Shown: positions 7,120 to 58,417 of the stretch, piece by piece
Layout of the letters: the number at the start of each line of letters is the position of its first letter
Position numbering within the stretch: position 1 is the first letter of the stretch
Program-made: the position numbers and the translations under genes
Notes under the pieces: model-generated
What the model was told of the DNA's origin: nothing
What the model saw: the letters and a program-made list of their open reading frames with translations, nothing else
Database searches by the model: none
Assembly: GCA_041567895.1 (NCBI GenBank)
Contig: JBFGAX010000001.1
Coordinates: 1,578-65,577 of the forward strand
Source: Acidimicrobiia bacterium
GTDB taxonomy: Bacteria; Actinomycetota; Acidimicrobiia; Spongiisociales; SHLN01
Direction of reading: 5' to 3'
DNA length: 64,000 nt

Positions 7120-7128
7120 AGATCACCA

Positions 7129-7923: not shown

Positions 7924-8002
7924 ACGTGTCCTCCTCGCGCACAACCTACCAGTGTGGTAGCAGCAGCTCAATGATCGACAAACGAAAAGCTATGGTGCCG
8001 AC

Positions 8003-10646: not shown

Positions 10647-10723
10647 TCGACGGGAGCTTATGGCGGGCCCCAAATGGAGAGGAGTCAATGATTGCAGGAT
10701 CCCGGCGCGATCAACGAACTACT

Positions 10724-20069: not shown

Positions 20070-20071
20070 AG

Positions 20072-20431: not shown

Positions 20432-20437
20432 GTCTCG

Positions 20438-21480: not shown

Positions 21481-21600
21481 GTTGGATGCTCCTTCGTATC
21501 GTCCACTCCTCTAGTTGTCGTGTGGTCGTCGTATGTATTGGGCGGCCCGTTTTCGCTCTGTCTCGTGCCGCCCGCAGTTGAGACAGATCCCAACCACCCA

Positions 21601-21629
21601 TAGAAAAACGCAGCATGACTGCTGCGTTT
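21601..21629 (-). terminator. Rho-independent terminator downstream of ribH (end of the rib operon)
   Basis: aaacgcagca-GUCA-ugcugcguuu hairpin followed by UUUUCUA on the minus-strand transcript. Confidence 0.65.
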
Positions 21630-25209: not shown

Positions 25210-25380
25210 AAACCGTCTACTTCTCCCATCCGGACTCTCACCGTCGGCTCTGGAATTTCACCAGATCAGTCCCTGGGAACGCTGTGCGTTCCTGAGGAGT
25301 CGCGGGCTTGCGCGTCATCGACTATTGCCGATGGCGGCATCACCGCCGGTAGGGACTTTCACCCTGCCCTGAAGTAGGAC
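25210..25380 (-). ncRNA. FMN riboswitch (RFN element) in the ribD leader
   Basis: Minus-strand sequence CUUCAGGGCAGGGUGAAAGUCCCUACCGGCGGUGAUGCCGCC...AGCCCGCGACUCC...GAUCUGGUGAAAUUCCAGAGCCGACGGUGAGAGUCCGGAUGGGAGAAG matches the conserved RFN core blocks in order. It lies ~160 nt upstream of ribD. Confidence 0.85.
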
Positions 25381-26683: not shown

Positions 26684-27610
26684 CTACGTGCGGCGATCGA
26701 TCTCGTAGACGCTGCCCGCCTGGCGCTTGGCGTGTTCCTTCATTTCGGAGGCAATTGCGGAAGCCTCCCACTGGTTCTGGATCGGGCGATGCTGATTTGT
26801 CACAACGCCCAGAGAAATCGACGTCAGCGGAAACGCATGACGCTCGCCCCGGCGATCGACCACTTCGATGTAACCACGCAACACATCGGCCGTGTCATAG
26901 AAGTCCAGCACGCCCTCGTCGAACGTCCTGATAACGGTCTTGCAAAAGTCTTCGACCCGCTCGGGATCGACCAGGGCGATGAAGTCGTCCCCACCGATGT
27001 GTCCGATGAATGGCTCAGCCTCCTCGAGCGCGGCTTGAGCCTCCAGGAGAACGTGGGCGGAGAATTTGATGACTCCGTCGCCCCGCATGAATCCATAATG
27101 ATCGTTGAACGCCTTGAAGTTGTCGAGATCGGCATGGACGAGGGCGAACGGCTTGCCGGAATCGATGCGACGCTCCAATTCCTGAGAGATCCGGAAGTTG
27201 CCGGGTAGCCCGGTGAGAGGCGACAGATCGCGGTTGGCCTGAGCTCTGGCCAATACAGTCTGAATGCGAGCAACGAGCTCGTCGAATTCAAAAGGTTTGG
27301 TCACGTAATCATCCGCCCCGAGCTGCAGACCCTCGACCCGATCCTGCGGCAGCGCTTTAGCCGTCAGGATGATGACCGAGATATTGGCCGTTGCAGGGTG
27401 CGTCCGCATGCGCCGAAGCACCGAAAGACCATCCATTCCCGGCATCATGATGTCGAGAATGACGAGATCGGGTGGATTTGCGGTGATAGCAGCCAGAGCT
27501 TGCTTGCCATCGTGAGCCGAATCCACTTCATAGCCGTCCAGCTCGAGGTTGACCCTGACGAAATGGACGATATCTGGATCATCATCGGCGACAAAGATCC
27601 GCTGACCCAT
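26684..27610 (-). CDS. Response regulator with REC domain fused to a GGDEF (diguanylate cyclase) domain; active-site variant GGDDF
   Basis: The REC domain is intact: acidic pocket DDD and the phospho-Asp in LVILDIMMPGMDG. In the GGDEF domain the GTP-contacting N (FND) and D (RGDG) are present. The A-site reads HIGGDDF and there is no RxxD I-site. Start is 2 nt after the rpe stop. Confidence 0.85.
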   Translation of the reverse strand: MGQRIFVADDDPDIVHFVRVNLELDGYEVDSAHDGKQALAAITANPPDLVILDIMMPGMDGLSVLRRMRTHPATANISVIILTAKALPQDRVEGLQLGADDYVTKPFEFDELVARIQTVLARAQANRDLSPLTGLPGNFRISQELERRIDSGKPFALVHADLDNFKAFNDHYGFMRGDGVIKFSAHVLLEAQAALEEAEPFIGHIGGDDFIALVDPERVEDFCKTVIRTFDEGVLDFYDTADVLRGYIEVVDRRGERHAFPLTSISLGVVTNQHRPIQNQWEASAIASEMKEHAKRQAGSVYEIDRRT

Positions 27611-43781: not shown

Positions 43782-45464
43782 CTAGATATGACGATTGACG
43801 GCGTTCATCACAGCTCGTAGCGACGCAGTTGTGATGTCGGAATGCAAACCGACACCCCAGACCTCTTCATCGTCAACCCGCATCTCCAGGTACGTGACCG
43901 CCTCGGCATCTCTGCCCGTGCCCATCGCATGTTCGTGATAGTCCATCACCCGCAGCGATATACCCAAGCGATCCTCAACGGCGGCAACGAATGCGTCCAC
44001 GGCACCGTTGCCTTCGCCGACAATCGTCCACTGTTCTCCGGATTCCTCTATGAGGGCTTCCACCGTTGTCCGGTCGTTTCCGCGAGCATTGTGCGAGCTG
44101 GTGTGCCGGATCAAGCGGTATTTGGCGTCGGGAGGGTTGACATACGTGCTACGGAATTCGGTCCATATCTCGTTCGGTTGGATCTCTCTTCCGGTTTCAT
44201 CCGTGATCGATTGGATGACACGCATGAAATCAATCTGCAGCCGCCTTGGCAGCTCCATCTTCTGCTCTGTCTTCAACACGTACGCCACACCGCCCTTGCC
44301 AGACTGGCTGTTGACGCGAATCACGTCCTCGTACGATCGACCGAGATCTGCCGGGTCAAGTGGCAGGTACGGCACGTCCCACAGCGCCTCACCTCCGACA
44401 GCCGCATCCTCCTTCTCCTGGGCCTCGAATCCCTTCTTTATCGCATCCTGATGCGATCCCGAGAATGCGGTATAGACCAGATCACCCACGTACGGATGAC
44501 GAGGATGGACCGGCAATTGATTGCAGTGTTCGGCCACCCTGCGTATCTCATTGATGTCGCTGAGGTCCAGGCCGGGATCGACCCCCTGGGTGAAGAGATT
44601 GAGAGCAAGGGTCACGACATCGACGTTTCCGGTTCGTTCGCCGTTTCCGAACAGCGTGCCTTCAACCCGGTCGGCGCCTGCCATCACTCCGAACTCGGCT
44701 GCGGCGACCGCCGTCCCCCGATCGTTGTGCGGGTGCACACTCAGGACAATCGCCTCACGCCGATCGAGATTCGTGTGCATCCATTCGATCATGTCGCCAA
44801 AGAGGTTGGCCGTCGACATCTCAACTGTCGCCGGAAGGTTGATGATCACCTTGTCCGACGGTGTCGGCTCGAAGACATCCATGACCGCCTCACACACCTC
44901 TTTTGCGAACGGCAGTTCGGTACCCGTGAAACTCTCCGGCGAGTATTCGTATCGAATGCGGGTGTCGCCCATCGCGGCTTCGAACTCCTTGCAGTGTTCA
45001 GCGCCCTTCACCGCGATATCGACGATTCCGGCCTCGTCCAACCCGAAGACGACCCGTCGCTGCGTTGTCGACGTCGAGTTGTAGAGATGCATGATCCCCT
45101 CACGGGCTCCGACGAGGCTTTCGTATGACCGTTCGATGAGATCGCGCCGCGCCTGCGTCAACACCTGGATCGTTACATCGTCCGGGATGAGATCCTCTTC
45201 GATGATGAGGCGCACGAAATCAAAATCCGTCGCCGAAGCGGCAGGAAATCCAACTTCGATCTCCTTGAAGCCCAACGCGACGAGTGTCTGGAACATCATG
45301 AGCTTCCGCTCCGAGTCCATCGGATCGATGAGCGCCTGATTGCCGTCTCGTAGATCAACACTGCACCAGATTGGTGACGTGGTGATGCGGGTATCGGGCC
45401 AGGTTCGATTACCCAGCTCGACGGAGGGGAAGGGTCTGTATTTGTGGACAGGCATGCGGTTCAT
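43782..45464 (-). CDS. leuA: 2-isopropylmalate synthase (long, mycobacterial-type LeuA)
   Basis: 560 aa; HxH TIM-barrel catalytic domain ([10 protein letters not shown]...) plus a C-terminal regulatory domain. Confidence 0.9.
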
Positions 45465-45594: not shown

Positions 45595-46623
45595 CTATTG
45601 GACGGCTGCCCCGGCCGCAACCATCGCAGCCGTGATCAACGCCGGGTCGACATGCATGACAACGGGGTCGCCGAATGCTCTCAAGAGCACCATTCGCAGT
45701 CCCCCGGCGTCCCGTTTCTTATCGAGAACAACCAGTTCCTCGAGATCATCTAGAGCAAGGTCTGGAATCCGGGTGGGAAGATTTTGGGCAGCAAGCAAGG
45801 TTTTCTGACGCGCGCTGCCATCAAAGCCGAGAAGCTCACGCGAAATGTCGGCCGCTACCGTCATGCCGATAGACACTGCGTCGCCGTGTGGCAGGCTGCC
45901 CGCGATCTCCACTGCGTGTCCAACCGTATGTCCGTAGTTGAGGATTGCGCGGCGGCCCGACTCTTTCCAATCGTCGCTCACAATATCGGCCTTGACACGC
46001 ACGGCTTCCAACACCACTTCATCGAGATCGACCAGTGGGCCCTCGATTTCGTAAAGATCAAGAATGCGGTCGCTGCCGATGCATCCGGCCTTGATGACTT
46101 CTGCGTGTCCCTGCCGGGCAATCGCTGAAGGGAGCTCGGCCAGCAGCAGGGTATCAATCACAACCCGCGACGGGTGCGAAAAGACCCCAACGAGGTTCTT
46201 GCCGTCGACGTTGACTCCGGTTTTGCCTCCGATCGCCGCGTCCACTGCTCCGAGCAATGTGGTCGGAACATAGACCGCCTCAATGCCACGCAGATACGTA
46301 CCGGCCACGAACCCGGCCAGATCGGTTGCGGCCCCGCCGCCGACGCCCACCACGGTGTCGGCGCGGCTCATCCCGATGCTGTTCAGCCAGCGAAACACCG
46401 CGCCGGCCGTCTCGAGACTCTTTGCCGCCTCTCCATCCGGTAGTTCAAAAAGGTCAGCCCGAGGTAGCCGATCGAGAAGTGCTTGGGCCACCTCCTCTGG
46501 CTTTCCCGGTTGGTGAAGAACCGCAACACGATGCCGATCCCGGTCGTTGACGATCGGGTCCGTCTCGATCGTCCCTTTCCCGATAACGATCTCGCAGTCG
46601 GAAATGTGTATCCGGTGTGACAT
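45595..46623 (-). CDS. aroB: 3-dehydroquinate synthase
   Basis: The track ORF starts inside aroC. The probable start is MSHRIHISDCEIVIGKG (ATG 46623, 4 nt after the aroC stop). Glycine-rich NAD loop VVGVGGGAATDLAGF is present. Confidence 0.85.
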   Translation of the reverse strand: MSHRIHISDCEIVIGKGTIETDPIVNDRDRHRVAVLHQPGKPEEVAQALLDRLPRADLFELPDGEAAKSLETAGAVFRWLNSIGMSRADTVVGVGGGAATDLAGFVAGTYLRGIEAVYVPTTLLGAVDAAIGGKTGVNVDGKNLVGVFSHPSRVVIDTLLLAELPSAIARQGHAEVIKAGCIGSDRILDLYEIEGPLVDLDEVVLEAVRVKADIVSDDWKESGRRAILNYGHTVGHAVEIAGSLPHGDAVSIGMTVAADISRELLGFDGSARQKTLLAAQNLPTRIPDLALDDLEELVVLDKKRDAGGLRMVLLRAFGDPVVMHVDPALITAAMVAAGAAVQ

Positions 46624-46627
46624 GGGA

Positions 46628-47779
46628 TCAGAAGGTAGCGATGCGCTTGCGATATGCCTCGACTGCCCCGACGAAATCCGAAATCGTGTCTCCCCCAAAC
46701 TTGCGTTGCATCTCCTGGGCAAGCACGATCGCCACCATTGATTCTGCGACTACTCCGGCCGCAGGCACTGCGCAGACATCCGAGCGTTCCCGAATGGCCG
46801 ATTTCTCATCCTTCGTCTCGACATCGACGGTTTTGAGTGCCTTCATCAACGTGGAGATCGGCTTCATTGCAGCCCGCACCCGCACCACCTGGCCGTTTGT
46901 CATGCCTCCCTCGATGCCTCCCGCCCTATCCGTACCCCGGACAAACTCTCCTTCGGCGTACGCGATCTCATCATGGGCGACCGATCCCCTTCTCCTCGCC
47001 GATTCGAAACCGTCCCCTACCTCGACTCCCTTGATCGCCTGAATGGACATCAGCCCCATCGCCAGCAGAGCGTCCAGTTTCCGGTCGTAGTGGACGTGAC
47101 TTCCAACCCCAACTGGCACCCCATATGCCAACACTTCGACGACGCCACCGAGGGTATCACGATCGGCTTTGGCCGCTTCGATGGCTGCGACCATGGCTGA
47201 TTCCGAGGCCGGGTCAGCAGACCGAACGGGAGAGGCGTCGATGGTGGAGAGATCATCGGGTGTCGGCATGGGACCGGTCGCTTCCGCTTCACCGATAGCA
47301 ACCACGTGCGAAAACACCTCTACGCCTACCTGATGCAATAGTTGCTTGGCCAGATAGCCGGCGACGGCCCTGGCAGCAGTTTCCCTGGCGGAGGCTCGTT
47401 CGAGAATGTCGCGAGCATCGTGCGTGTCATATTTTTGCATTCCCGCCAGATCGGCATGTCCCGGGCGGGGAGCTGTAGCGGGACGGGCGCTGGTCCCGGA
47501 TTCGGGATTCATCTCTTCCGTCCACTTGGTCGCGAATTCGGTATTTCGTACCAGTACCGAAACCGGGGATCCGAGCGTCATCCCAAAACGAAGACCGCCC
47601 AGGAACTCGATCTCGTCCTGTTCCAACTGCATACGCCGACCTCGCCCATAGCCGAGGCGCCGCCGGGCCAACTCGGCGGCAAGCCCTTCGCGACTCACGG
47701 GCAGACCAGACGGAAGACCTTCAACGATGGTGGTCAGGCCGGGCCCGTGCGATTCTCCAGCGGTCAACAAGCGCATCAT
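46628..47779 (-). CDS. aroC: Chorismate synthase
   Basis: 383 aa; MRLLTAGESHGPGL is the canonical N-terminus. Confidence 0.9.
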   Translation of the reverse strand: MMRLLTAGESHGPGLTTIVEGLPSGLPVSREGLAAELARRRLGYGRGRRMQLEQDEIEFLGGLRFGMTLGSPVSVLVRNTEFATKWTEEMNPESGTSARPATAPRPGHADLAGMQKYDTHDARDILERASARETAARAVAGYLAKQLLHQVGVEVFSHVVAIGEAEATGPMPTPDDLSTIDASPVRSADPASESAMVAAIEAAKADRDTLGGVVEVLAYGVPVGVGSHVHYDRKLDALLAMGLMSIQAIKGVEVGDGFESARRRGSVAHDEIAYAEGEFVRGTDRAGGIEGGMTNGQVVRVRAAMKPISTLMKALKTVDVETKDEKSAIRERSDVCAVPAAGVVAESMVAIVLAQEMQRKFGGDTISDFVGAVEAYRKRIATF

Positions 47780-47829: not shown

Positions 47830-48342
47830 CTACTTCAGAATCTGTTGTCCCTCACCCAAAACGAACGTCGAGTCACCAAAGAGGAACGTGACCTTGTCGT
47901 CGTCCAGGGCGACAATCTTGTACCGACCGGCAAATGTTTCGCCGACGCCAACGGTGTACTCGGTGCCATCGACCCGAACGATTGCCCTTCGATTCCCAGC
48001 GGCATCGGTGGTTATAGCCACGACTGTCACATTACTTCCGGCGAGTGGATCATCGGATCCGGTGACGTCGGGGGCACCGACAATGAGGGGTCGAAACGGA
48101 TCGCGGGGTTGGGCAGCCTGGAAAGCCTCCACCACACGTGAGCCGCGCAACAAACTGTCCGTGGAGCCGACGCCCGCAACCACGCCGGCGTCGGTGGCTG
48201 ACGGCAGCACGACGTTCTGCGGAGCATCGAGCGTCGTGCGCGAGGCGCCGAAGACGCCAGGCGCCACCAGCAGCCAGCTGATCGACACCAGCGCAGCCAG
48301 CAGCAAAATCGTCGTGATGAGTGTCGAGCTTCGCTTGACCAT
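47830..48342 (-). CDS. PilP-like type IV pilus assembly protein (N-terminal TM anchor, no lipobox)
   Basis: 170 aa; N-terminal TM helix, RDPFRP motif, then a beta-rich domain (AIVRVDGTEYTVGVGETFAGRYKIVALDDDKVTFLFGDSTFVL) resembling the PilP C-domain. It lies immediately downstream of pilM/N/O. Confidence 0.55.
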   Translation of the reverse strand: MVKRSSTLITTILLLAALVSISWLLVAPGVFGASRTTLDAPQNVVLPSATDAGVVAGVGSTDSLLRGSRVVEAFQAAQPRDPFRPLIVGAPDVTGSDDPLAGSNVTVVAITTDAAGNRRAIVRVDGTEYTVGVGETFAGRYKIVALDDDKVTFLFGDSTFVLGEGQQILK

Positions 48343-48923
48343 CAGTTCACCGCCTCCTCTAGTTCCAGGGTTCCCGGCAGTGGATTGGTTGAGAAGGCCC
48401 TTGCCGTCAAATTGGTCTGGAGAATGTTTGTCGACGTCTCTTCATCGAGATTGGCCGAGATCGAAAGCTGATCGACACGGATCAGCCTGTCGAGATCCTC
48501 CAAATCGAACAGGAATTGCAGCGTCCTGAAGTACTCGCCCTCGATCCCGAGATTGAGCGCGATTTCGTAGAGGTCCTCACTCAGCGTCGAACTGGCAGGC
48601 GGTATGGCCGAAAGCTGGGTAATAGTGAGCCCCGAGTCCCTCGCCAGAGCCCGGATGGACTCGAGCAATGCGGCCTCACTTGGATCCTCCGGGATCGAGA
48701 CAGAAATCTCAGCCACGGCGGCGTCGAACTGACCCTGCTGTCGCTGCAGCTCCAACAATCTCGTGATGCGAGCCTCGAGGGTCTCTTGCTCTTGCACTGC
48801 CGTCTGTAGATCAGCCTCGACATCATCAATAGTGGCAGTCGATCCCCGCCAAAACAAGAAAAACCAAAGAGCCAAAATGACCAATCCCACAAGCACCGCT
48901 ATCAACACATTCCGTCGGTTCAT
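48342..48923 (-). CDS. pilO: Type IV pilus assembly protein PilO-like
   Basis: 193 aa; N-terminal TM, coiled-coil (LQTAVQEQETLEARITRLLELQRQQ) and a C-terminal alpha/beta domain. Start overlaps the pilN stop. Confidence 0.65.
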   Translation of the reverse strand: MNRRNVLIAVLVGLVILALWFFLFWRGSTATIDDVEADLQTAVQEQETLEARITRLLELQRQQGQFDAAVAEISVSIPEDPSEAALLESIRALARDSGLTITQLSAIPPASSTLSEDLYEIALNLGIEGEYFRTLQFLFDLEDLDRLIRVDQLSISANLDEETSTNILQTNLTARAFSTNPLPGTLELEEAVN

Positions 48924-49519
48924 GAGATCTCCGGAATTCTGGATGCGATTCTGGTGCTGGCCGCTCCTTCAGTGAGTTGTGCCGTCGACTGATAGCTGAC
49001 GACCTCAACCCCACTGACGTCAGCAGCGGTGACCGAAGTCACCCAGGTAGAACCGAGTCCGGCGTAATTGGTGTTGTCGACCGAGCGCAGCCAGTTGGCT
49101 ACGTCCTCGTATTCGAACGCCGTACCCGAGACCGATATCTGCTCTTCATTTCCCGTCAGCGTGTTGAGCCACACGCGGTCCGGAATGAATCGGCCGAGAT
49201 CATTGAGCAGGCGAGCCCACGAGACATCTCCAGCAAGAGCTGCAGCCACGAGCTCGGTTCTGGCCTCGAAATTCTGGAGAGGAATTTCGAATTGGCCGAG
49301 AGAATCGATTTCGGCCTGTCTCGCTGCATTTGCTTGTTGCTGGGCAACGAGATCGTCTTCGAGGTCCCGGATGGTTGAGAGGCGCCCGAGTGTCAGAAAT
49401 GCAAGCAAGACGACCAGCAGCACCAGACCCGCCAGCAAAACGACGCGGTTGCGACGAGACGCCTCCTCTTCGAAGATCTCGCCAGGAAGGAGGTTTATAT
49501 CTCTCATTCGGGGCTCCAC
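48920..49519 (-). CDS. pilN: Type IV pilus assembly protein PilN
   Basis: 199 aa; INLLP motif (DINLLPGE) followed by a TM segment and periplasmic domain. Confidence 0.75.
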   Translation of the reverse strand: MEPRMRDINLLPGEIFEEEASRRNRVVLLAGLVLLVVLLAFLTLGRLSTIRDLEDDLVAQQQANAARQAEIDSLGQFEIPLQNFEARTELVAAALAGDVSWARLLNDLGRFIPDRVWLNTLTGNEEQISVSGTAFEYEDVANWLRSVDNTNYAGLGSTWVTSVTAADVSGVEVVSYQSTAQLTEGAASTRIASRIPEIS

Positions 49520-50565
49520 AGGGCCAGGCCGACCGGGACCGGGAGCACAGGCTGCAGAGGGGATACGACTTCATCGGACAGTTTGCCGGTGCTGAGGTGA
49601 CTGAGAACGCGAGCGGGTTCTACCGGTGCATCGAGCGCACGCCCGAGTCGATTGGCCAGGTGAGGCAGGCGGGCGCCGTTACCGGCCACAATCACCTTGC
49701 TCACCGAACCACCATCGCCCTGGCTCAGGAAGAAGTTGACGGATCCGCGAATCTCTTCAATGAACCTGCCGGCCTCTGCGGTCAAGAGTGACTGGGCCAC
49801 TTCGTCTTCGGTCTCGTCCCCGGATGCTGCGGCCGCGTCGTCATCCACCGAAATCCCGATCCGACGTTTGAGCTGCTCGGCGGCTTGGAATTCGAGATTC
49901 AAACCCTCAACGAGCGTCTCTGTGAACGCCGAACCACCGGTTTGAATGATGCGAACAAAACGTGGGGTCAATCCACTGACGAGCACGACCTGCGTGATGT
50001 CGGCCCCGATATCGACCAACACGGCAATACCGCTTACCGGCTGAGGAACCAGGGACCGGACGAGGGCAAAAGCTTGGAGATCGACAGCGATGACATTGAG
50101 TCCTGCAGAGGTGGTGACATCGAGGAAATCCTGAACCATCGATCGATGAGCGGCAACGGCGAGGATGGCCTGCATCGGTTCGCCCTCTGGCGTTGTGAAC
50201 TCGTCGATGCCAACGTGGTCGAGGATTGCCTCCTCGACTGACATTGGCATGTACTCCTGAACTTGAAACGGGAGGGCATCTCTCAACTCCGCTTCACCCA
50301 TCAGAGGAACATCGACCTGACGAACCACGACTCGCTGATTGGCGATGCCGATAACCACCCTCTTCTTGGGCAATCGATGCTTGCGCCAGAGCTCCTTGAT
50401 GGCGTCGACGATCGCAGCCCCGTCGATGATCTCGCCTGCGGCAACTGCACCTTCTGGCAACAGCACCTCACCGACCTTGCGAAGGACGGGCTGTGACTTT
50501 CCGGCGTCAATGGCCACAGCGCGAACGCTGCTGGAACCTATATCCAGGCCAACGTTGACTGCCAT
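49504..50565 (-). CDS. pilM: Type IV pilus assembly ATPase-like actin-fold protein PilM
   Basis: 353 aa; MAVNVGLDIGSSSVRAV (FtsA/actin-like phosphate-1 motif) with PilM-family architecture. Confidence 0.85.
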   Translation of the reverse strand: MAVNVGLDIGSSSVRAVAIDAGKSQPVLRKVGEVLLPEGAVAAGEIIDGAAIVDAIKELWRKHRLPKKRVVIGIANQRVVVRQVDVPLMGEAELRDALPFQVQEYMPMSVEEAILDHVGIDEFTTPEGEPMQAILAVAAHRSMVQDFLDVTTSAGLNVIAVDLQAFALVRSLVPQPVSGIAVLVDIGADITQVVLVSGLTPRFVRIIQTGGSAFTETLVEGLNLEFQAAEQLKRRIGISVDDDAAAASGDETEDEVAQSLLTAEAGRFIEEIRGSVNFFLSQGDGGSVSKVIVAGNGARLPHLANRLGRALDAPVEPARVLSHLSTGKLSDEVVSPLQPVLPVPVGLALWSPE

Positions 50566-50650
50566 CTACTCTCCGCCTCTTCATCTCGTGATGTATCCGG
50601 ATGCCCAGCGCGGGCGTTCCGGTTACTGCTTTGGTCTGTCTTGCTCGAGT

Positions 50651-50680
50651 GCTTGTTCGTGCTTGTTCGTGCTTGTTCGG
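50651..50680. repeat. 3x tandem 10-bp repeat (gcttgttcgt) ~85-115 nt upstream of the pilM start
   Basis: gcttgttcgt gcttgttcgt gcttgttcgg, preceded by a degenerate copy (cttgctcgagt). One-helical-turn phasing. Confidence 0.6.
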
Positions 50681-50872
50681 GTTCTGCTGCCGCTCGATCT
50701 TCGGTCGTACATCCACGAACGTGTTGTAATTACGCACGTGTCATTTACTCGGCGAAAGCATAGCGATGAGGGGTATGGCCCGCGGTCTTTGGGCGGGACC
50801 GCGAAAACTTCCCTAAACGGCGCGGTTACGCCGTTATCGGGGAACCCGGTCGTAGTCGCATGTGGGCAAGGT

Positions 50873-51646
50873 TCATAGCCCGAGATACCACGATGCGATG
50901 GAGTCTCCCCAGAGAGCACCCAGCCAAGCTGCCGCCATCATGGCCGGACCGAATGGCATTTTGGCTTTCCGTCCACGTTTCGTGAACACCATGATCGCAA
51001 CTCCGGCCAATCCCCCGATCAAGAATGCGAGAAAGACACCAACGACCAGCTCCGACCATCCCGAATAGGCCATCACAAATCCGAGCAAAAAGGCCAGTTT
51101 GACATCGCCGAAGCCGAATCCCCCCGGGGTGATCATGAACAGAACGAAGAAAAGTACGAGGTAGGCGAAGCCGCCTGCGAACGCACCAGGCAGTTGGTCG
51201 GTCTGTCCCTCGAGAACGCTGCCACCGATGAACAGTGCAATCGTCAACCCGGTGCCGGTGAACACGATGCGATCGGGCAGACGCTTGTGATCGAGATCAG
51301 TGAGTATCAAGGCAATCGTGGTGCCCGCAAAGAACAGATACCCGGCCAACAAGGCATTGGGGCCGACCCACCAGGCAACGAGACCAAAGCTGACGGCCGT
51401 CGCCACTTCCACCACGGCGTACCGTCCGGAAACCGGATTCCCGCAATCACGGCATTTGCCGCCGAGACGCAGCCAGCCGATAACCGGGATATTGTCCGAC
51501 GAACGAATCGGGGCATCACAAACCGGACAAGCCGAACCCGGGGTAACTACCGATTTGCCCAACGGCACCCGATAGGCAACCACATTCAAGAACGATCCGA
51601 TAACGAGCCCAACCAGACCTGAAAACGCGATCAGCAGCTCATGCAT
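50873..51646 (-). CDS. pilD: Prepilin peptidase (A24 family, PilD)
   Basis: 257 aa; N-terminal zinc-binding CPVCDAP...CRDCGNP tetracysteine. Catalytic Asp context is present (DLDHKRLPD; GFGFGDVKL). Confidence 0.9.
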   Translation of the reverse strand: MHELLIAFSGLVGLVIGSFLNVVAYRVPLGKSVVTPGSACPVCDAPIRSSDNIPVIGWLRLGGKCRDCGNPVSGRYAVVEVATAVSFGLVAWWVGPNALLAGYLFFAGTTIALILTDLDHKRLPDRIVFTGTGLTIALFIGGSVLEGQTDQLPGAFAGGFAYLVLFFVLFMITPGGFGFGDVKLAFLLGFVMAYSGWSELVVGVFLAFLIGGLAGVAIMVFTKRGRKAKMPFGPAMMAAAWLGALWGDSIASWYLGL

Positions 51647-51655
51647 GCTCTATTG

Positions 51656-52147
51656 CTACCAGCCGGAGGCGGCCCACACCGGAGAAGGTGGAACCAGCGA
51701 GGGACAGGAACCACCGAAAAGCCCGGAGGCGGTAGACGCCTTACCGAACGCGGTAGCGTCCTGGACCGCATCCCAGATCCCGAACCAGGTTCCCGATTGG
51801 CTTTGCACAACCACGCAAACCGTGTCGCTTCCGTTGACGGCGACTCCGACCTGTCCGACTCCCGGTGTCAGCGATGCCACAAAGGCCAGGCTCGGTTCGA
51901 CTTCCTGTAGCACGGTCACATCGTCGGTATACGCGATCGTGGCTGCCATCACGCTCTTTTCGGCGACCAGGCCATGGCGTAGCGCAGTCTGAGCAGCTCG
52001 ATCCTGGGCAGTGGTCCGCTGACCGAGGAATGTCGGAACTGCGATAGAAACCAGGATCGCTACGATCAAAACAACCACCATCAGCTCTATCAAGCTGAAA
52101 CCGGCCTCACTGTCTCTCCTGAACATGAGACAGTATCGACGCCTCAC
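51656..52147 (-). CDS. pilA: Type IV pilin (class III signal peptide), copy 1
   Basis: ...EAG|FSLIELMVVVLIVAILVSIAVPTF has the prepilin cleavage site G/F and Glu+5, with a C-terminal Cys pair. The start is either GTG 52147 or ATG 52126. Confidence 0.85.
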   Translation of the reverse strand: MRRRYCLMFRRDSEAGFSLIELMVVVLIVAILVSIAVPTFLGQRTTAQDRAAQTALRHGLVAEKSVMAATIAYTDDVTVLQEVEPSLAFVASLTPGVGQVGVAVNGSDTVCVVVQSQSGTWFGIWDAVQDATAFGKASTASGLFGGSCPSLVPPSPVWAASGW

Positions 52148-52180
52148 AAACCGGCCTTGAAAGATTCCCCGCAGCCCACA

Positions 52181-52214
52181 TCAAAAAGAGCGGGACCCAG
52201 TCGGGTCCCGCTCT
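52181..52214 (-). terminator. Strong intrinsic terminator between the two pilin genes
   Basis: Perfect 12-bp stem agagcgggaccc/gggtcccgctct with loop agtc, followed by UUUUU on the minus-strand transcript. It sits 40 nt downstream of the pilin copy-2 stop. Confidence 0.65.
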
Positions 52215-52254
52215 AGATGAAGCCTCGTGAGAGGCTTTACCAACTAGTCAGCTG

Positions 52255-52707
52255 CTACCAGCCGGCGCCAGCAGAGCAAGCTGCTTCATCCGCCGGAGTT
52301 GCGGCACCGGAGCCGTAAACGGTTGCCTGCTGTGGATGCTCATAGATCCAGAAGAAGGTTCCGCTGGCGGACTCGGACACCAGGCACACGGCACCTGTTG
52401 CAGCGTAAAGCGTCGGCAACACACCACTGTCGGCGGCGTCGTCAACTGTCCAGTCGAGGCTTGGCTCGATGGCGCTGAGATCCGCGGCTGTGGCCGTGTA
52501 GGCCTGATCATTCGCGTAGATGGTTTTTTCCGTGGCCAGGGCGTTGCGCAGGTTCGACTGAGCAGCGCGGTCCTGGGCCGTCTCACGTTGACCGAGGAAG
52601 GTCGGGATCGCGATAGCGACCAGGATGGCGATGATAAGCACCACGACCATAAGCTCGATCAGTGTGAAACCGTCTTCGTTCAGACGATTGCGCATCCGAT
52701 TCAACAT
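52255..52707 (-). CDS. pilA: Type IV pilin (class III signal peptide), copy 2 (probable major pilin)
   Basis: True start ATG 52707 (GGAGG 10 nt upstream): MLNRMRNRLNEDG|FTLIELMVVVLIIAILVAIAIPTF, with a C-terminal Cys pair. The track ORF extends further 5'. Confidence 0.85.
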   Translation of the reverse strand: MLNRMRNRLNEDGFTLIELMVVVLIIAILVAIAIPTFLGQRETAQDRAAQSNLRNALATEKTIYANDQAYTATAADLSAIEPSLDWTVDDAADSGVLPTLYAATGAVCLVSESASGTFFWIYEHPQQATVYGSGAATPADEAACSAGAGW

Positions 52708-52977
52708 GTTGTATTGCCTCCTATGACAATGAATCCGGGACGCAATGCGCGCCCCATGTACAACAGCTGTATCGGCGCCCCTCCCAGCTTCCTTGAGGGT
52801 GATCGACCAATTTCCCAAACGAACTAGTCCCCCGGGTATGCACCCTGAATGCGCTGCAAAAAGGCGCAGTCATCGCTTGGAGACAATCCGGGCCAACCGT
52901 GGGCTCGTCACAGTTCACATTCAACGTGCAGGCCGAGCGAAGGTTCGTTCGCTTTCGGTCGAGAGGGGGTTTGAGGG

Positions 52978-53036
52978 GCATGCGCAGTATTAATGAGGTG
53001 GCATGCGCAGTGTCAATGAGGTGGCATGCGCAGAGG
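52978..53036. repeat. Three direct 23-bp repeats (GCATGCGCAG-T(A/G)T(T/C)AATGAGGTG) between pilC and the pilin gene
   Basis: Copies are at 52978-53000 and 53001-53023. The third, at 53024, is interrupted by a 20-bp palindromic insert (agggcttcgagccct) before its GTCAATG half. The whole array is flanked by the inverted repeat tgaggggc/gcccctca. Confidence 0.6.
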
Positions 53037-53132
53037 GCTTCGAGCCCCTCAGCGTCAATGTAGATGGCGAACCCCCACGGACAACATCAACGAGAAACCA
53101 ACAAGCGTTTAGCCGCCGACAATCAACGCGCA

Positions 53133-54359
53133 TTACCCGATGACATTGACCAGGTTGAACATCGGTAAGTAGAGGGCCACGAGGATGGCGCCGACTGTTG
53201 CACCCATGAACGCGATGAGGATCGGCTCGAGGAGGCTGGTGAGAGCGTCTACGGTGTCGTTGACTTCACGGTCGTAAAAGTCGGAGACCTTGTCGAGCAT
53301 GTTGTCGAGGGCGCCGGTCTCTTCGCCGACCGCCATCATCTGCACGACCATGGGCGGAAAGATTTTTCCCTCTTTGGCCAGCGGCTGGGAGATTGAATCT
53401 CCACCCTTGACGGCCTGTGCGACCCGGTTGACTGCGTCTCCGACCACTACGTTTCCAGCTGTCAACTCGACGATGGTCATGGCTTCCAGAATCGGAACGC
53501 CGGAACGGACGAGCACGCCGAGGGTTCTGGCGAATCGGCTGATCGCGGTTTTGTGGTTCATGGTGCCGAACACGGGCGCTCGCAATTTGAACGCATCCCA
53601 CATACGACGTCCGCCCGTGGTGTTGATCCAGCGCCTGAACGCGTAGACCGAGGCACCAAACGCGGGGAAGATGATGTACCACTTTGAGGTGAGAACGCCC
53701 GAGGCTCCGATCAGGGCTCTCGTCGCGATTGGAAGTTCGCCTCCAACATCCGCGTACATATCAACGAACTGGGGGACGACGAAGAGAAGCATCAGGGTTA
53801 CAACACCCGCCACCATGCTGAGTACCACGATCGGGTATGCCATGGCCGACTTGATCTTGCTGCGCAGCGCCGCTGCGGATTCGAGCGTATCTGCGATACG
53901 TTCGAGGGTCTCGTCCAGTACACCTGCTGCTTCACCGGCTTGCACCATCGCGACAAATAGCGTGTTGAAGACTTTGGGATGCTGCTCGAGTGCAACGCTG
54001 AGGCTTGCACCTCGCTCCACGCTGGCTCGTACCTCGCCAATCGTCTTCTTGAGGGGCTTGGAAACGGTCTGTTCTTCGAGAACATAGAGAGATCTCAGGA
54101 GCGACAGACCGGAATTGATCATGGTCGCAAACTGGCGGCTGAAGATGGCAATCTCTTTGGCTTTTATCCGGTCGGTTATGCCCGGGATCGAGATCTCTTT
54201 CTGGAGACCGTCGGTCTTCTTCTCGGCGACGCCGAGCGGTGTCATCCCGCTTTCCTTCAGAGCGCGGATGACCGCTTCTTTGGAGGAGCCCTCCAACTCC
54301 CCTTCGATGACTTTGCCGCTCTTGGCGTCACGAACCTTGTACGTGTACATCGAGGCCAT
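53133..54359 (-). CDS. pilC: Type IV pilus inner-membrane platform protein PilC (GspF family)
   Basis: 408 aa with two GspF repeats and 3 TM segments. Confidence 0.9.
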   Translation of the reverse strand: MASMYTYKVRDAKSGKVIEGELEGSSKEAVIRALKESGMTPLGVAEKKTDGLQKEISIPGITDRIKAKEIAIFSRQFATMINSGLSLLRSLYVLEEQTVSKPLKKTIGEVRASVERGASLSVALEQHPKVFNTLFVAMVQAGEAAGVLDETLERIADTLESAAALRSKIKSAMAYPIVVLSMVAGVVTLMLLFVVPQFVDMYADVGGELPIATRALIGASGVLTSKWYIIFPAFGASVYAFRRWINTTGGRRMWDAFKLRAPVFGTMNHKTAISRFARTLGVLVRSGVPILEAMTIVELTAGNVVVGDAVNRVAQAVKGGDSISQPLAKEGKIFPPMVVQMMAVGEETGALDNMLDKVSDFYDREVNDTVDALTSLLEPILIAFMGATVGAILVALYLPMFNLVNVIG

Positions 54360-54362
54360 GAT

Positions 54363-55901
54363 TTAGCCGCCCTGTAGGAGGCGTTGCATTGCCTCTTTGT
54401 CGTTGCATCGTTCCATGGCGAGTTCTCGAGTGATCTTGCCCTGTTTGGTCATTGCTGCAAGCGCCATGTCCATCGTCTGCATTCCGTATTTGCCACCGGC
54501 CTGAATCGCGCTGGGAATCTGGTGGACCTTGCCATCGCGCACGAGGTTTCTAATAGCCGATGTCGCGATCATGACCTCGACTGCTGCGATCCGGCCCTTG
54601 CCGTCAACGGTCGGGAGTAACTGTTGAGACAGAACGGCCTGCAGCGATCCTGCCAACATCACCCGAACCTGAGATTGCTGGTGGGCCGGAAATACATCGA
54701 TGATTCGCTCGATGGATTGAGGCGCACTCTGGGTATGCAGGGTTCCGAATACGAGGTGTCCGGTTTCGGCTGCAGTTAGCGCAGCACCGATGGTTTCGAG
54801 ATCTCGCATCTCACCCACCAGGATCACGTCAGGATCCTGCCGCAAAATGTGCTTGAGCGCCTGATTGAATCCGAGCGTGTCGGTTCCGACTTCTCGTTGA
54901 TTCACAATGCTCTTCTTGTGCCGGTGCAAGAACTCGATCGGATCCTCAACCGTGATGATGTGACTCGCCCGCTCAGTGTTGATGAGGTTGATGATCGACG
55001 CCAACGAGGTTGACTTACCTGAACCGGTCGGGCCGGTCACGAGTACGAGACCACGATGCAGATGCGCAAGCGAGTTGACGGCCGCAGGCATGCCGAGCTC
55101 GTCGGGGTTCTTGATCTCATTCGGAATGGAACGAAGAACTGCCGCTACCGAATCACGCTGGAAGAACACGTTTACACGAAACCGTCCTCGTCCAGGGAGC
55201 GGATGAGACGTGTCCAGTTCACGAGTTTCTTCGAACCGGGTTCGCTGCTCAGCCGTGAGAATGTCGTACAAGATTCGGCGAAGCTCGGCCGGCATCAGAA
55301 TATCGAACCCCTCCATGGGCTCGAGCGATCCGTGGACGCGCACCATGGGCGGTGAACCGGCCGTCAGATGAAGATCGGAACCTTGCTTTTCAATCAACAA
55401 CTCGAGGAAGTCGTTGAGATGAACCTGTTCGGAAACTTCTGTCGGTACGCGACGCGGCTCCTCATCGAGGCCCATGAAAAATGAATTGAGCATCTCGTCG
55501 ATGCCGGTCTGGCTGGCAAGCGCCATCGTCACGGCTGAGCCACACACCGTCTCGAGGCTGGTCTGAATGTCGCGGATGAACGGATTGGCGACCGCCACAA
55601 TCACACGGCCGTCTTCAACCTTGATCGGTATGGCATTGAAGCGGTGTGCAGTATCGGGATCGAGCCTGGACACTGCCTCGGGCTGCAGCACTTCGTTCTG
55701 TACGTCGACATACCTCATGCCTATCCGGTCGGCGACCGTAGCAAGCAGATCCCCCGGTGAGACGTGGCCGTTTTGCAGAAGGATTCGCGCGAGGGGAACA
55801 TCCGTGTCCTTCTCCTGTACGTACAGGGCTTCGAGTACATCACGGCTGAGCAGCCTCTTATCGACGAGTGACTCGCCGATTTGTTTGGATACCCGGTTCA
55901 C
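54363..55901 (-). CDS. pilT: PilT-type retraction ATPase carrying an N-terminal T2SSE_N/MshEN-like domain
   Basis: The C-terminal ~360 aa is a PilT core: Walker A GPTGSGKST, HIITVEDPIEF, GHLVFGTLHT, and the signature AIRNLVRDGKVHQ, with no tetracysteine. The N-terminal ~150 aa parallels the PilB N-domain (IGESLVDKRLLSRDVLEALYVQ...PLARILLQNGHVSPGDLLATVADRIG...IPIKVEDGRVIVAVANPF). Confidence 0.85.
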   Translation of the reverse strand: MNRVSKQIGESLVDKRLLSRDVLEALYVQEKDTDVPLARILLQNGHVSPGDLLATVADRIGMRYVDVQNEVLQPEAVSRLDPDTAHRFNAIPIKVEDGRVIVAVANPFIRDIQTSLETVCGSAVTMALASQTGIDEMLNSFFMGLDEEPRRVPTEVSEQVHLNDFLELLIEKQGSDLHLTAGSPPMVRVHGSLEPMEGFDILMPAELRRILYDILTAEQRTRFEETRELDTSHPLPGRGRFRVNVFFQRDSVAAVLRSIPNEIKNPDELGMPAAVNSLAHLHRGLVLVTGPTGSGKSTSLASIINLINTERASHIITVEDPIEFLHRHKKSIVNQREVGTDTLGFNQALKHILRQDPDVILVGEMRDLETIGAALTAAETGHLVFGTLHTQSAPQSIERIIDVFPAHQQSQVRVMLAGSLQAVLSQQLLPTVDGKGRIAAVEVMIATSAIRNLVRDGKVHQIPSAIQAGGKYGMQTMDMALAAMTKQGKITRELAMERCNDKEAMQRLLQGG

Positions 55902-57580
55902 GCCACGACCCTCATGATCTCTTCGATGGATGTCCTGCCCTGGCGGACCTTGGTCATTCCGTCATCCCACAGTTCGAGCATGCCTTGTTCTTTGGCGACG
56001 ACTTTGATCTCGTTCGAAGGTCGGTTCTCGACGGCCATACGCCGAATCTCGTCGGATATCAGCATGACCTCGTGTAATGCCAACCGCCCGCGATATCCAT
56101 TTGAACAAGCACCACACCCCTTCGGATCAGCGGCGTAAATCTGTGAGGCGCTGACCTTCTCGATTTCCTCGTCGGACCAACGAGCTTTCACAAGCATGTC
56201 CTTGTCGGGAGAAAACTCGACTTTGCACTTCTTGCACAAACGTCTGGCGAGACGTTGGCCCAACACTGCGTCGAGCGACGAAGAAACCAGATACGGTTCG
56301 ACGCCCATCTCGATGAGGCGTCCGATGCTCGATGGCGCATCGTTTGTGTGCAACGTTGAAAGCACGAGGTGACCGGTCAGGGCGGCCTCGATCGCGATTT
56401 GTGCTGTTTCGTGGTCGCGAATCTCACCAACAAGGGCAATGTCAGGGTCGGACCGCAGGATGGATCGCAAAGCCGTGGCAAACGTCAAGCCAGCCTTCTT
56501 GTTGACCTGAACTTGCGTTATCCCTTCCAGCCGATACTCAACCGGATCCTCAGTGGTGATGATGTTGACCTCCGGCCTGTTCAACACGTTGAGCGTTGCG
56601 TACAGGGTCGTCGATTTACCGGAACCGGTTGGGCCGGTTACGAGAATGGCGCCGTAGGGCTTGGTGTAGGCCGATTCAAATCGGGCGAGTGTTTGGGGTA
56701 GGAAACCGAGATCCACCAGTTCCAAGAGCACCGAGGATCGATCGAGAATACGCAGCACGACTTTCTCACCGAACACCGACGGCAATGTGGCAACGCGCAA
56801 GTCGACGGGTTTGCCGTTCATCTTGAGAGACATACGGCCGTCTTGCGGCACCCGTCGCTCGGCGATGTTGATGTCTGCCATGATCTTGAGACGACTCACG
56901 AGGGCGTTCGAAATCGCCTTGGGGGTCGACATGACTTCATGCAGAACACCGTCGACCCGGAAACGAACGCGCAGGTCCTTTTCGCCCGGTTCGATATGAA
57001 TATCGGAGGCGCCTTCGTTCACAGCCCGGGTCACGATCGTGTTGACGAGTTTGACGACCGGTGCCTCATCCACTGCCTCTTTGAGAGCGGAGAGGTCTTC
57101 CTTCTCTTCTTCCTCTCCAAAGTCGGCGAACTCGGTGACCGAATCGTTATACGACGACATTCGTGCAATCGCAGCCTCGACCGCACTGCGGGGAGCGACC
57201 CGGGGAACGATCTCCATACCGGAAATCGACCTGATGTCGTCCATGGCGAGCACGTTGGCCGGGTCAGCCATCGCAACAATGAGCTTGTCTCCGTCGAATA
57301 GCACAGGCAAGGCCGCATACCGCTTGGCGATGTTGTCCGGAATCAGAGCCGCCGCGGTGGGATCGACCGTGATTTCTTCGAGAGCGATGTATTCGATGCC
57401 AATTTGCTTGGCGAGCACTTTCACGAGATCGGTTTCGTCGACGAACTCCTGATCGACCAGGATGCGCGTGAGCGACTTGCCGCTTTCACTCTGTATTTGC
57501 TGCGCTTCGTCGAGCTGCTCTTTCGTGAGCACGCCCTCTTGCACAAGCATCGAGCCGAAATGACGCGATTCGGTTCTCAA
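55898..57580 (-). CDS. pilB: Type IV pilus assembly (extension) ATPase PilB
   Basis: 560 aa with an N-terminal MshEN-type motif (HFGSMLVQEGVLTKEQLDEAQQIQ), Walker A GPTGSGKST, and a tetracysteine CKKC...CGAC. TTG start with AGGAG 5 nt upstream. Confidence 0.9.
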   Translation of the reverse strand: MRTESRHFGSMLVQEGVLTKEQLDEAQQIQSESGKSLTRILVDQEFVDETDLVKVLAKQIGIEYIALEEITVDPTAAALIPDNIAKRYAALPVLFDGDKLIVAMADPANVLAMDDIRSISGMEIVPRVAPRSAVEAAIARMSSYNDSVTEFADFGEEEEKEDLSALKEAVDEAPVVKLVNTIVTRAVNEGASDIHIEPGEKDLRVRFRVDGVLHEVMSTPKAISNALVSRLKIMADINIAERRVPQDGRMSLKMNGKPVDLRVATLPSVFGEKVVLRILDRSSVLLELVDLGFLPQTLARFESAYTKPYGAILVTGPTGSGKSTTLYATLNVLNRPEVNIITTEDPVEYRLEGITQVQVNKKAGLTFATALRSILRSDPDIALVGEIRDHETAQIAIEAALTGHLVLSTLHTNDAPSSIGRLIEMGVEPYLVSSSLDAVLGQRLARRLCKKCKVEFSPDKDMLVKARWSDEEIEKVSASQIYAADPKGCGACSNGYRGRLALHEVMLISDEIRRMAVENRPSNEIKVVAKEQGMLELWDDGMTKVRQGRTSIEEIMRVVA

Positions 57581-57640: not shown

Positions 57641-58417
57641 TTACAAACCGGCTGCGATTCTCATCTCGTGGCGCGGGGCTGGCAGACCGGTCCACCATTC
57701 GAAGCTGAGCGCAGCTTGCTCGACGAGCATGTCGATTCCGGAAACGACCGGTATCCCGCCCTCCGTGGCCAGGCTGACCGCAGGAGTTGGTTGGTCGGCA
57801 TAGGCCATGTCGAAGAGCCCCGTGGCACCAGCCGACATCGGCGTCGGGAGCTCCTCGGCAGCCATTCCGAGAGGAGTGGCGTTGACGAGCACACCTGCAA
57901 ACGGATCGCCCCAATCCAAAACGGTACCGGTCACCCCGACCGATTTCAGAACTGCTGTGGCAGCCCCCTGGCGTCTGGCCGAGACACTGATCCGACCCGT
58001 CGTGATCGAAGCCACAGCGACCAACGCCGCCGCTGCCGCGCCACCGCCTCCCAGGATGAGCACATCACCCGTGGGTAGCTCGGCACTTCTCCAGCACGCG
58101 CGTATAGCCGGGATGTCGGTGCTGATGCCCATGACTCTCTCGCCACGAACCATCATCGCGTTTACAGACCGGGCAATGGCCGCATCGGCGGAAACCACAT
58201 CGGACGACGTATACGCCAGGCCCTTGTGCGGCATGGTCACGTTCACGCCCGTCAACCTTCCACTCGCAATCTCCGAGACAGCAGATGTGAACTGCACAGC
58301 ATCCACCTCCCGCGCCTCGTAGGCGCCCTGAACTCCGTGATAGGCCAGAGCTGTCTGATGCATGGCCGGAGATCGGGAGTGGCCAACCGGGTTGCCCAGC
58401 AGAGCCAGGCGCATCAT
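57641..58417 (-). CDS. aroE: Shikimate dehydrogenase
   Basis: The track ORF is over-extended. The probable start is MMRLALLGNPVGHSRSP (ATG 58417, overlapping the mltG stop, TGATG). A GGGGAAAA NADP loop is present. Confidence 0.8.
   Translation of the reverse strand: MMRLALLGNPVGHSRSPAMHQTALAYHGVQGAYEAREVDAVQFTSAVSEIASGRLTGVNVTMPHKGLAYTSSDVVSADAAIARSVNAMMVRGERVMGISTDIPAIRACWRSAELPTGDVLILGGGGAAAAALVAVASITTGRISVSARRQGAATAVLKSVGVTGTVLDWGDPFAGVLVNATPLGMAAEELPTPMSAGATGLFDMAYADQPTPAVSLATEGGIPVVSGIDMLVEQAALSFEWWTGLPAPRHEMRIAAGL

Follow-up and report, generated by a model that had tools for sequence, protein, structure and literature searches.

We analysed a 64,000-nt stretch of contig JBFGAX010000001.1 (hereafter the window), from a metagenome-assembled genome (MAG) of an uncultured Acidimicrobiia bacterium, in which positions 47830-57580 are filled exactly by ten consecutive minus-strand open reading frames (ORFs) between aroE and aroC-aroB. 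Gene identities were assigned by reading Pfam and NCBIfam profile scores against the cut-offs of the models, which gave the order pilB, pilT, pilC, pilA2, a hairpin terminator, pilA1, pilD, pilM, pilN, pilO and a PilP-like gene (Table 1). An earlier note, made from the sequence without database searches, had described a type IVa pilus (T4aP) locus of ten minus-strand genes at this position, and the ORF list together with the Pfam-identified flanks confirmed that layout; the extension and retraction ATPases, platform, peptidase, two pilins, PilMNO and PilP-like protein that it named were likewise all recovered, by profiles or by fold. Judged from these protein families, the cluster is a T4aP and not a type II secretion system (T2SS), a competence (Com) pseudopilus or a Tad pilus. 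We consider it likely that the genes encode a functional, vertically inherited T4aP machine of Acidimicrobiia, located at an old conserved site in the alaS-ruvX-mltG-aroE...aroC-aroB-efp-nusB-pyr backbone.

Profile scores carried the class assignment for the retraction motor and the alignment proteins. PilT and PilM exceeded their NCBIfam cut-offs, PilT with 480 bits on TIGR01420 (cut-off 319) over aa 162-502 and PilM with 185 bits on TIGR01175 (cut-off 133), while PilN and PilO exceeded the Pfam gathering scores; the PilM-PilN-PilO alignment subcomplex is specific to T4aP (PMC6916266). PilB, the core of which matched T2SSE at E=3e-140, contains the Walker A motif GPTGSGKST and a CxxC...CxxC tetracysteine in its translation, and the AIRNLVRD motif was found in that of PilT. 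PilC matched PF00482 (T2SSF) over two stretches (E=9e-64), and PilD matched A24_N_bact (E=1e-30) and Peptidase_A24 (E=7e-13), with CPVC...CRDC and GFGDVK motifs in the translation. The profile comparison that the earlier note had named as able to overturn its T4aP label thus favoured T4aP families over T2SS and Com.

Table 1. Features of the pil locus and its immediate flanks, in window coordinates.
Feature	Position	Strand	Basis
aroE, shikimate dehydrogenase, upstream flank	57641..58417	-	Pfam Shikimate_dh_N and SDH_C; 258 aa called in sister MAGs
pilB, extension ATPase, 560 aa, N-terminal MshEN domain	55898..57580	-	TIGR02538, T2SSE and MshEN
pilT, retraction-type ATPase, 512 aa	54363..55901	-	TIGR01420; MshEN PF05157
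part of pilT coding for the MshEN-like N-domain, aa 1-144	55470..55901	-	aligns with PilB N-domain
pilC, inner-membrane platform protein, 408 aa	53133..54359	-	two T2SSF domains
non-coding region upstream of pilA2, 425 nt	52708..53132	-	sequence reading
pilA2, type IVa prepilin, 150 aa	52255..52707	-	N_methyl E=3e-8; AGGAGG ribosome-binding site; start refined
intrinsic terminator/attenuator hairpin after pilA2	52182..52214	-	stem and T5 at 52214->52187
pilA1, second type IVa prepilin, 156 aa	51656..52126	-	N_methyl E=1e-7; start refined
pilD, bifunctional-type prepilin peptidase, 257 aa	50873..51646	-	A24_N_bact and Peptidase_A24
pilD-pilM spacer, 307 nt	50566..50872	-	sequence reading; conserved block by alignment
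pilM, actin-like cytoplasmic alignment protein, 353 aa	49504..50565	-	TIGR01175; PilM_2 E=2.5e-35
pilN, 199 aa, overlapping pilM and pilO	48920..49519	-	PF05137 E=6e-12
pilO, 193 aa	48342..48923	-	PF04350 E=6e-13; T2SSM_b E=2e-7
PilP-like gene, 170 aa	47830..48342	-	fold and motif, without family match
aroC, chorismate synthase	46628..47779	-	Chorismate_synt E=1e-113
aroB, 3-dehydroquinate synthase, directly after aroC	45595..46630	-	DHQ_synthase and DHQS_C

The earlier note had called the second gene simply pilT, which held for the core (aa 160-512) but missed that the product is really a fusion with an MshEN domain ahead of it. This MshEN/GSPII-like domain spans aa 1-144 and matched PF05157 at aa 61-144 (E=7e-13). 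An AlphaFold (AF2) model built from 49 homologues gave an N-domain with predicted local distance difference test (pLDDT) values >90, folded as a four-helix bundle plus an alpha/beta subdomain, followed by a disordered linker (145-157) and the PilT core. Compared with solved structures, the core shared 53-54% identity with Geobacter PilT4, at a target-normalised TM-score of up to 0.94, and only ~25% with PilB structures. The solved PilT/PilU chains among the structure matches, all from diderm bacteria, are 317-361 aa long, and therefore none carries the extra N-domain. From residue 1 onward this domain is colinear with the N-domain of the adjacent PilB (25% identity, E=5e-13). Because the GTG start of pilT overlaps the pilB stop by 4 nt and full-length MshEN-PilT homologues form >100 protein clusters at 54-68% identity, annotation error does not account for the fusion.

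The consensus of cyclic di-GMP (c-di-GMP)-binding MshEN domains consists of two tandem 24-residue motifs, (R/K/L)LGxx(L/V/I)(L/V/I)xxG(L/V/I)(L/V/I)xxxxLxxxLxxQ (PMC11731258). The PilB N-terminus matched MshEN at E=8.5e-21 and reached 55 bits on the c-di-GMP motif model NF053729 (cut-off 38); the PilT N-domain scored 25 bits on the same model, and its motifs are degenerate (G10->R in motif I, G3->A in motif II), in a form kept across the family. Binding of c-di-GMP is therefore plausible for PilB and doubtful, in its canonical mode, for PilT, as far as these motif matches can tell. Since PilB passes the motif model, its extension activity would probably be stimulated by c-di-GMP, and since the PilT motif is conserved but degenerate, a docking or regulatory module is likelier there than a canonical c-di-GMP receptor. 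Some 20 kb from the cluster, at 26684-27610 on the minus strand, lies a gene for a 308-aa protein with a response-regulator receiver and a GGDEF domain, the latter matching the first half of the GGDEF profile only; from its predicted domains, the organism may make c-di-GMP, which would be relevant to any c-di-GMP control of the two MshEN-bearing motors.

The last gene of the cluster was the most interesting departure, namely a PilP-like gene where PilP is expected to be absent. A 2019 review of monoderm pili notes that monoderms lack PilP and finds this logical, as they have no secretin (PMC6916266). The 170-aa ORF matched nothing significantly in Pfam (including PilP), NCBIfam or profile-versus-PDB searches, and aligning the protein to E. 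coli HofP with hhalign recovered just the nine-residue RDPF motif at 6.7% probability; the signal came only from fold comparison and from a scan of many family members. Its N-terminal transmembrane helix (aa 5-26) has no lipobox Cys and is followed by a variable linker, an invariant QPRDPFRPL motif (aa 78-86), a Gly/Pro-rich linker and a seven-strand beta domain (aa 104-169, modelled pLDDT ~90) that ends in GQQILK. In HofP, the E. coli homologue of PilP, RDPFKP stands right behind the signal peptide. Fold comparison of the beta domain gave GspC as the best match, with four PilP structures and OutC/PulC also matched, and among 99 family members 16 weakly matched Pfam T2SSB and a few matched PilP or T2SSC. 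The pilP-like label given earlier is thus sound at the level of fold and motif; relative to canonical PilP, the protein is not lipidated, falls under the sequence-family thresholds and has no secretin gene nearby.

All 32 close homologues of the PilP-like protein are labelled hypothetical. A profile of the family run against 1.84 billion representatives found 1129 proteins at E<=1e-3, and those with a named source all came from Actinomycetota MAGs. As their similarity lies below family thresholds, these at least 1129 PilP-like proteins constitute a family of their own that carries no annotation. Some members (P0176, P0181, P0189 and P0231), 260-310 aa in length, have two tandem beta domains, and a Cys pair (…CVT…LCEG…) conserved in many members is missing from the window protein.

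Both prepilins have short leaders. PilA2 begins with the 13-residue leader MLNRMRNRLNEDG, followed by a G|FTLIEL cleavage site, and has two Cys in its C-terminal region; PilA1 has the nine-residue leader MFRRDSEAG, cut before FSLIEL. The two pilins are paralogues with 50% identity. The terminator that the earlier note placed between their genes proved real: the hairpin after pilA2 has a 12-bp stem with nine G-C pairs, a T5 tail and a fold z-score of -3.2, and in three related loci (L007, L009 and L026) the first pilin gene likewise has a perfect hairpin of 12-18 bp behind it, of different sequence; folding revealed those of L009 and L026 that a simple terminator scan had missed. Such a position is in keeping with strong expression of a major pilin and partial read-through.

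The 425-nt region upstream of pilA2 is presumed to be a promoter/operator region. It contains a 23-bp tandem repeat in 2.7 copies at 52972-53033 (Tandem Repeats Finder score 103; plus-strand consensus TGAGGTGGCATGCGCAGTATCAA), which may be a regulator-binding array, and its length differs among relatives, with ~195 nt in L009. The gap claimed between pilD and pilM was also found, and is presumed to be the promoter/operator of pilMNOP(-aroCB). Within it lie a 10-bp repeat in three copies (GTGCTTGTTC, 50649-50679) and a conserved 47-nt block at 50724-50770 (CTCATCGCTATGCTTTCGCCGAGTAAATGACACGTGCGTAATTACAA), common to L007 and L009 and partly to L026, which includes the near-palindrome AAATGACACGTGCGTAATT. 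A small ORF or helix-turn-helix regulator within this spacer was considered and rejected, there being no convincing ORF; the equivalent position in the distant locus L031 holds an HTH_17 gene. No RNA family was found in the pil locus at the Rfam gathering threshold, and a GG-N10-GC sigma-54 promoter was not seen by eye upstream of pilA2. A consensus promoter scan of the locus found fewer sites than in shuffled sequence, and we therefore claim no promoter. The spacing suggests the transcription units (aroE-)pilB-pilT-pilC, pilA2, pilA1-pilD and pilM-pilN-pilO-PilP-like(-aroC-aroB).

Related loci were sampled by AroC, blind to pil content, and the window proteins were mapped onto the 18 loci returned. 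The full cluster from pilB to the PilP-like gene, with aroE directly upstream, was found in three (L009, L014 and L020), and the same gene order on contigs ending before aroE in two (L007 and L018). Two others (L021 and L023) showed the part from pilC to the PilP-like gene plus two extra large minor pilins, and three (L008, L011 and L022) gave a partial view before the contig ended. An intact pilD alone stood between aroE and aroC in four Acidimicrobiia genomes (L010, L012, L013 and L017), and no pil gene was found upstream of aroC in L015, L016, L019 and L024 (Elusimicrobiales locus). Four distant loci (L026, L028, L030 and L031), found via homologues of the PilP-like protein (33-37% identity) or of PilT (57%), again showed pilM-N-O-PilP-like-aroC-(aroK)-aroB-...-efp, and across the loci compared the order recurs where AroC is only 57-73% identical. 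Beyond the Actinomycetota, E. coli K-12 has hofM-N-O-P-Q-aroK-aroB, alike in order and orientation, and in Acinetobacter baylyi aroB and aroK are among the essential genes listed in type IV pilus operons (PMC5542475).

The likeness to the hof genes bears on what the machine does. E. coli hofMNOPQ are annotated as DNA-utilisation proteins and in many species DNA is taken up with the help of retractile T4aP (PMC6916266), so the machine might be real but serve mainly DNA uptake or utilisation, as do E. coli Hof or Thermus pili. We regard this emphasis, which is compatible with a functional T4aP machine, as unlikely, given that neither comEA, comEC nor dprA was seen in the 64 kb and that nothing in the sequence tells pilus functions apart.

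The same synteny speaks to the question of origin. According to the earlier note, the cluster was inserted into the shikimate operon, at the position where mycobacteria keep only a lone prepilin-peptidase-like gene; on this reading it would be a horizontally acquired pilus island at a place where other actinobacteria have just the peptidase gene. The patchy distribution among relatives, which have the cluster, pilD alone or nothing, would fit such an acquisition, and type IV filament systems are often horizontally transferred (Denise et al. 2019, PMC6668835); close relatives also seem to have exchanged alleles of the pilin genes and, less so, of pilD, pilN and pilO. This part of the note was not supported, and an island is quite improbable. 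The GC content at third codon positions (GC3) of the pil genes is 0.63-0.73, within the range of the flanks, and GC is likewise not different, so a compositional island was rejected; no integrase, tRNA or repeat boundaries were found at the cluster, and the distances from aroE to pilB and from the PilP-like gene to aroC are just 60 and 50 nt. Order and position are identical at the depth of divergence given above, Pil protein divergence among relatives tracks that of the flanking proteins, and the adjacency to aro genes is common to E. coli. Reduced loci keep an intact pilD in place, for which loss is simpler than repeated targeted gain.

Composition equal to the flanks, deep conservation and the hof-aro parallel therefore make an old, vertically kept cluster the best reading. 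The simplest account of the compared loci would be an old pilMNOP(Q)-aro linkage, with the whole cluster retained by many Acidimicrobiia and cut down to pilD, repeatedly, in others, and the isolated prepilin-peptidase gene found among the shikimate genes of actinobacteria is probably what remains of the old pilus cluster. The earlier note's point that relatives can have a lone peptidase gene at this very site was borne out in the four Acidimicrobiia genomes, and its remark on mycobacteria would fit the same picture. The flanking genes are a conserved Actinomycetota housekeeping backbone: upstream the order is aspS-alaS-ruvX-mltG-aroE, and downstream aroC-aroB are followed by a LeuA-like gene and efp-nusB-pyrR-pyrB-pyrC-carA-carB-pyrD, with gmk-coaBC-priA farther on. 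No aroK intervenes between aroC and aroB in the window, and it sits between them in L026, L030 and L031. The LeuA-like gene (HMGL-like and LeuA_dimer, 43782-45464), between aroB and efp, occupies a place where relatives have aroQ and/or pepP.

To the claim that the cluster looks functional, the integrity and divergence of its genes lent support. The ten ORFs, packed closely and with start and stop codons that overlap, are all intact, and neither frameshifts nor internal stops were found in them. Exact sequence matches and the names of homologues assigned the sequence to uncultured Acidimicrobiia MAGs. Independent MAGs gave the lengths of Table 1 for pilB, pilT, pilC, pilA2, pilA1, pilD and pilM; pilN was called at 195 aa in sister MAGs, which reflects an alternative start codon. 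Against L007, at an unsaturated synonymous divergence (dS) of ~0.6, the ratio of nonsynonymous to synonymous divergence (dN/dS) was 0.01-0.05 for pilT, pilC, pilM, pilN, pilO, pilD and the PilP-like gene, and against L009 it was 0.03-0.10 for every pil gene, compared with 0.03-0.04 for the flanking genes leuA and aroC. Only pilA2, in the L007 comparison, fell outside a range of 0.01-0.10: its product was 70% identical to that of L007, with a dN/dS of 0.36, and 95% identical to that of the more distant L009. PilT, PilC, PilM and the PilP-like protein were 96-99% identical to those of L007 and PilA1 74%, with dS raised to 1.3-1.8 in pilD, pilN and pilO and raised also in pilA1. This mosaic of divergence values suggests exchange of pilin alleles by recombination together with diversifying selection on the pilins.

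These values also bear on whether the cluster is a decaying remnant heading for the pilD-only state and no longer making pili. Such decay could be read from the missing minor pilins, which more distant relatives have, from the several relatives already down to pilD alone, and from L028, in which pilB and aroE are in fragments. It is nonetheless highly improbable: every ORF is intact, dN/dS equals that of the housekeeping neighbours, and the translational coupling through overlapping start and stop codons is kept. The alaS of L028 is fragmented too, and therefore the breaks there look like assembly errors; its metagenome contig, 372 kb long, has alaS, aroE and pilB broken up within 6242-9860, probably by assembly frameshifts, and a PatA_N-domain gene lies between aroE and pilB.

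Several points weigh against a functional, vertically inherited T4aP and the working proposed for it. The sequence comes from a MAG and the pilus system is known from its genes alone. PilB reached 647 bits on TIGR02538, its best model, slightly under the equivalog cut-off of 676, and 599 bits on the GspE model (cut-off 630); PilC had its best NCBIfam match with the PilC model at 430 bits, below the cut-off of 700. MshEN motif II of PilB is imperfect against the published consensus, and binding of c-di-GMP is predicted from motif models only. The argument for ancestral linkage compares ~24 actinobacterial loci with one proteobacterial outgroup. Finally, a six-frame search of the 64 kb found no more than two prepilin motifs accompanied by a hydrophobic segment of pilin type, and the lack of minor pilins at the locus is the chief reservation about function.

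T4aP normally need minor pilins, which may lie elsewhere in the genome. The earlier note's word complete needs a qualifier, for the 64 kb has neither minor pilins nor a secretin (0 among ~57 large ORFs), and TsaP was not found there either. In the more distant Actinomycetota loci L021 and L023, two extra prepilin-like genes of 235-448 aa lie between pilA and pilD and are missing from the Acidimicrobiia clusters; their mature proteins of ~418-448 aa and 235-240 aa (approximately L021 1950-3980 and L023 1891-3930) are candidate minor or tip pilins.

That the genes encode a T2SS, a Com-type competence pseudopilus or a Tad pilus instead, for which the GspE score of PilB, the 387 bits of PilC on the GspF model (cut-off 424), the GspM models that also match PilO and the GspC-like fold of the PilP-like domain might be cited, is close to untenable, because in every comparison the T4aP model outscored its rivals, the PilT-family ATPase exceeds its curated cut-off, carries the AIRNLxRx motif and closely resembles solved PilT4, PilM, PilN and PilO likewise exceed theirs, the cut-offs of ComGA (259 against 300 bits), ComGB (128 against 240, with PilC) and TadA (TIGR03819, 50 against 373) were failed, neither GspD and GspL homologues nor a GspH-K minor pseudopilin set was found in the 64 kb, and the window has no Flp pilin and no TadB/TadC pair, its platform being a single two-domain gene and its pilins 150-156 aa long.

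For a functional T4aP, knowledge of these protein families allows a working to be proposed. PilD would cleave both prepilins after Gly-1 and probably N-methylate them. PilA2 is probably the major subunit, since its gene comes with a separate upstream region, a strong ribosome-binding site and a terminator after it; PilA1 would be a second subunit or one of low abundance. The PilB hexamer would drive the PilC platform during extension and PilT would do so during retraction, with MshEN-type N-domains on both motors that may act in the different ways outlined above. PilM, PilN and PilO would form the cytoplasmic and membrane alignment complex, to which the membrane-anchored, non-lipidated PilP-like protein probably binds, via PilN/PilO and its RDPF-containing segment, placing a PilP/GspC-type beta domain outside the membrane. 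The linkage of pilMNOP to aro genes would be older than this lineage, and the pilD-only relatives would be reduced derivatives.

Comparison with known systems placed the locus between two kinds of T4aP. As in the diderm systems of Pseudomonas aeruginosa, Neisseria and Myxococcus xanthus, it has PilB, PilT, PilC, PilD, PilM, PilN and PilO, short-leader pilins with Phe+1 and Glu+5, a PilP-fold protein with an RDPF motif, and pilMNOP directly upstream of shikimate genes, as are hofMNOPQ in E. coli. It departs from those systems in that secretin, TsaP and minor pilins are missing from the 64 kb, a transmembrane helix instead of a lipid anchors the PilP-like protein, PilT has an added MshEN-like domain, and all genes stand at one locus, whereas diderms use several. 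The monoderm T4aP of Firmicutes (Streptococcus sanguinis, Clostridium perfringens and C. difficile; PMC6916266) likewise have one clustered locus with PilB (PilF), PilT, PilC (PilG), PilD, PilMNO and two similar major-type pilins, and they have no secretin, for which the 64 kb here has no gene either, but they have no PilP (PMC6916266), in contrast to the PilP-like gene conserved here, and their loci include several minor pilins where this one has none. As in the receptors MshE, PilB and PilF (PMC11731258), a full MshEN-type domain is present in both PilB and the PilT fusion. Reported carriers of MshEN are extension and secretion ATPases as well as glycosyltransferases (PMC11731258), whereas here it is also joined to a retraction-type ATPase, in which the two 24-residue motifs deviate at key Gly positions. 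The PilP-like protein is bitopic like GspC and GspB and has RDPF as in HofP, but compared with GspC, GspB and PilP it lacks a PDZ domain, a coiled coil and a nearby partner secretin gene.

An actinobacterial type IV pilus has reportedly been studied experimentally in the zoospores of Actinoplanes missouriensis, which belongs to Actinomycetes, another class than Acidimicrobiia. In a 2019 review, the experimentally studied actinobacterial type IV pili covered are Tad-type only (PMC6916266). T4aP in Actinobacteria were already recognised from genome surveys (PMC6668835) and PGAP already names these Pil proteins in public MAGs, and therefore the existence of the cluster is not new. A limited literature search found no prior description of a PilP/GspB-like family in secretin-less actinobacterial clusters, of an MshEN-PilT fusion or of the lone actinobacterial pilD as a vestige.

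Elsewhere in the window, a flavin mononucleotide (FMN) riboswitch (RF00050, 103 bits, 25214-25380, minus strand), the only Rfam match in the window, lies upstream of a ribD-...-ribBA-ribH operon at 21759-25058. Five plus-strand ORFs of 111-325 aa without a Pfam family lie at 10688-11620 and 19462-21603; the three at 19462-21603, between pheS and the rib operon, have a slightly lower GC3 of 0.60-0.62.

Taken jointly, the loci could represent a distinct monoderm T4aP in Actinomycetota, with a PilP/GspB-like protein in place without a secretin, a sensor-bearing PilT and a lone pilD as the fossil of an ancestral locus, a combined picture that we put forward tentatively and hold to be doubtful as a whole. 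If it is true, the membrane-anchored PilP/GspB-like protein could act, for example, as a ring or conduit across the cell wall, retraction as well as extension could come under the direct control of a second messenger or partner protein, and the link between pilus and aro genes would predate the split of Actinomycetota and Proteobacteria. The locus offers a clean conserved gene set and a template for the Acidimicrobiia version of the machine; its PilP-like component and its PilT with a regulatory domain are two departures from the textbook monoderm machine, and they bear on how a pilus crosses a thick wall without a secretin and on the balance between extension and retraction. Soils, sediments, sponges and water are rich in Acidimicrobiia, and such pili could affect their adhesion, motility or DNA uptake.

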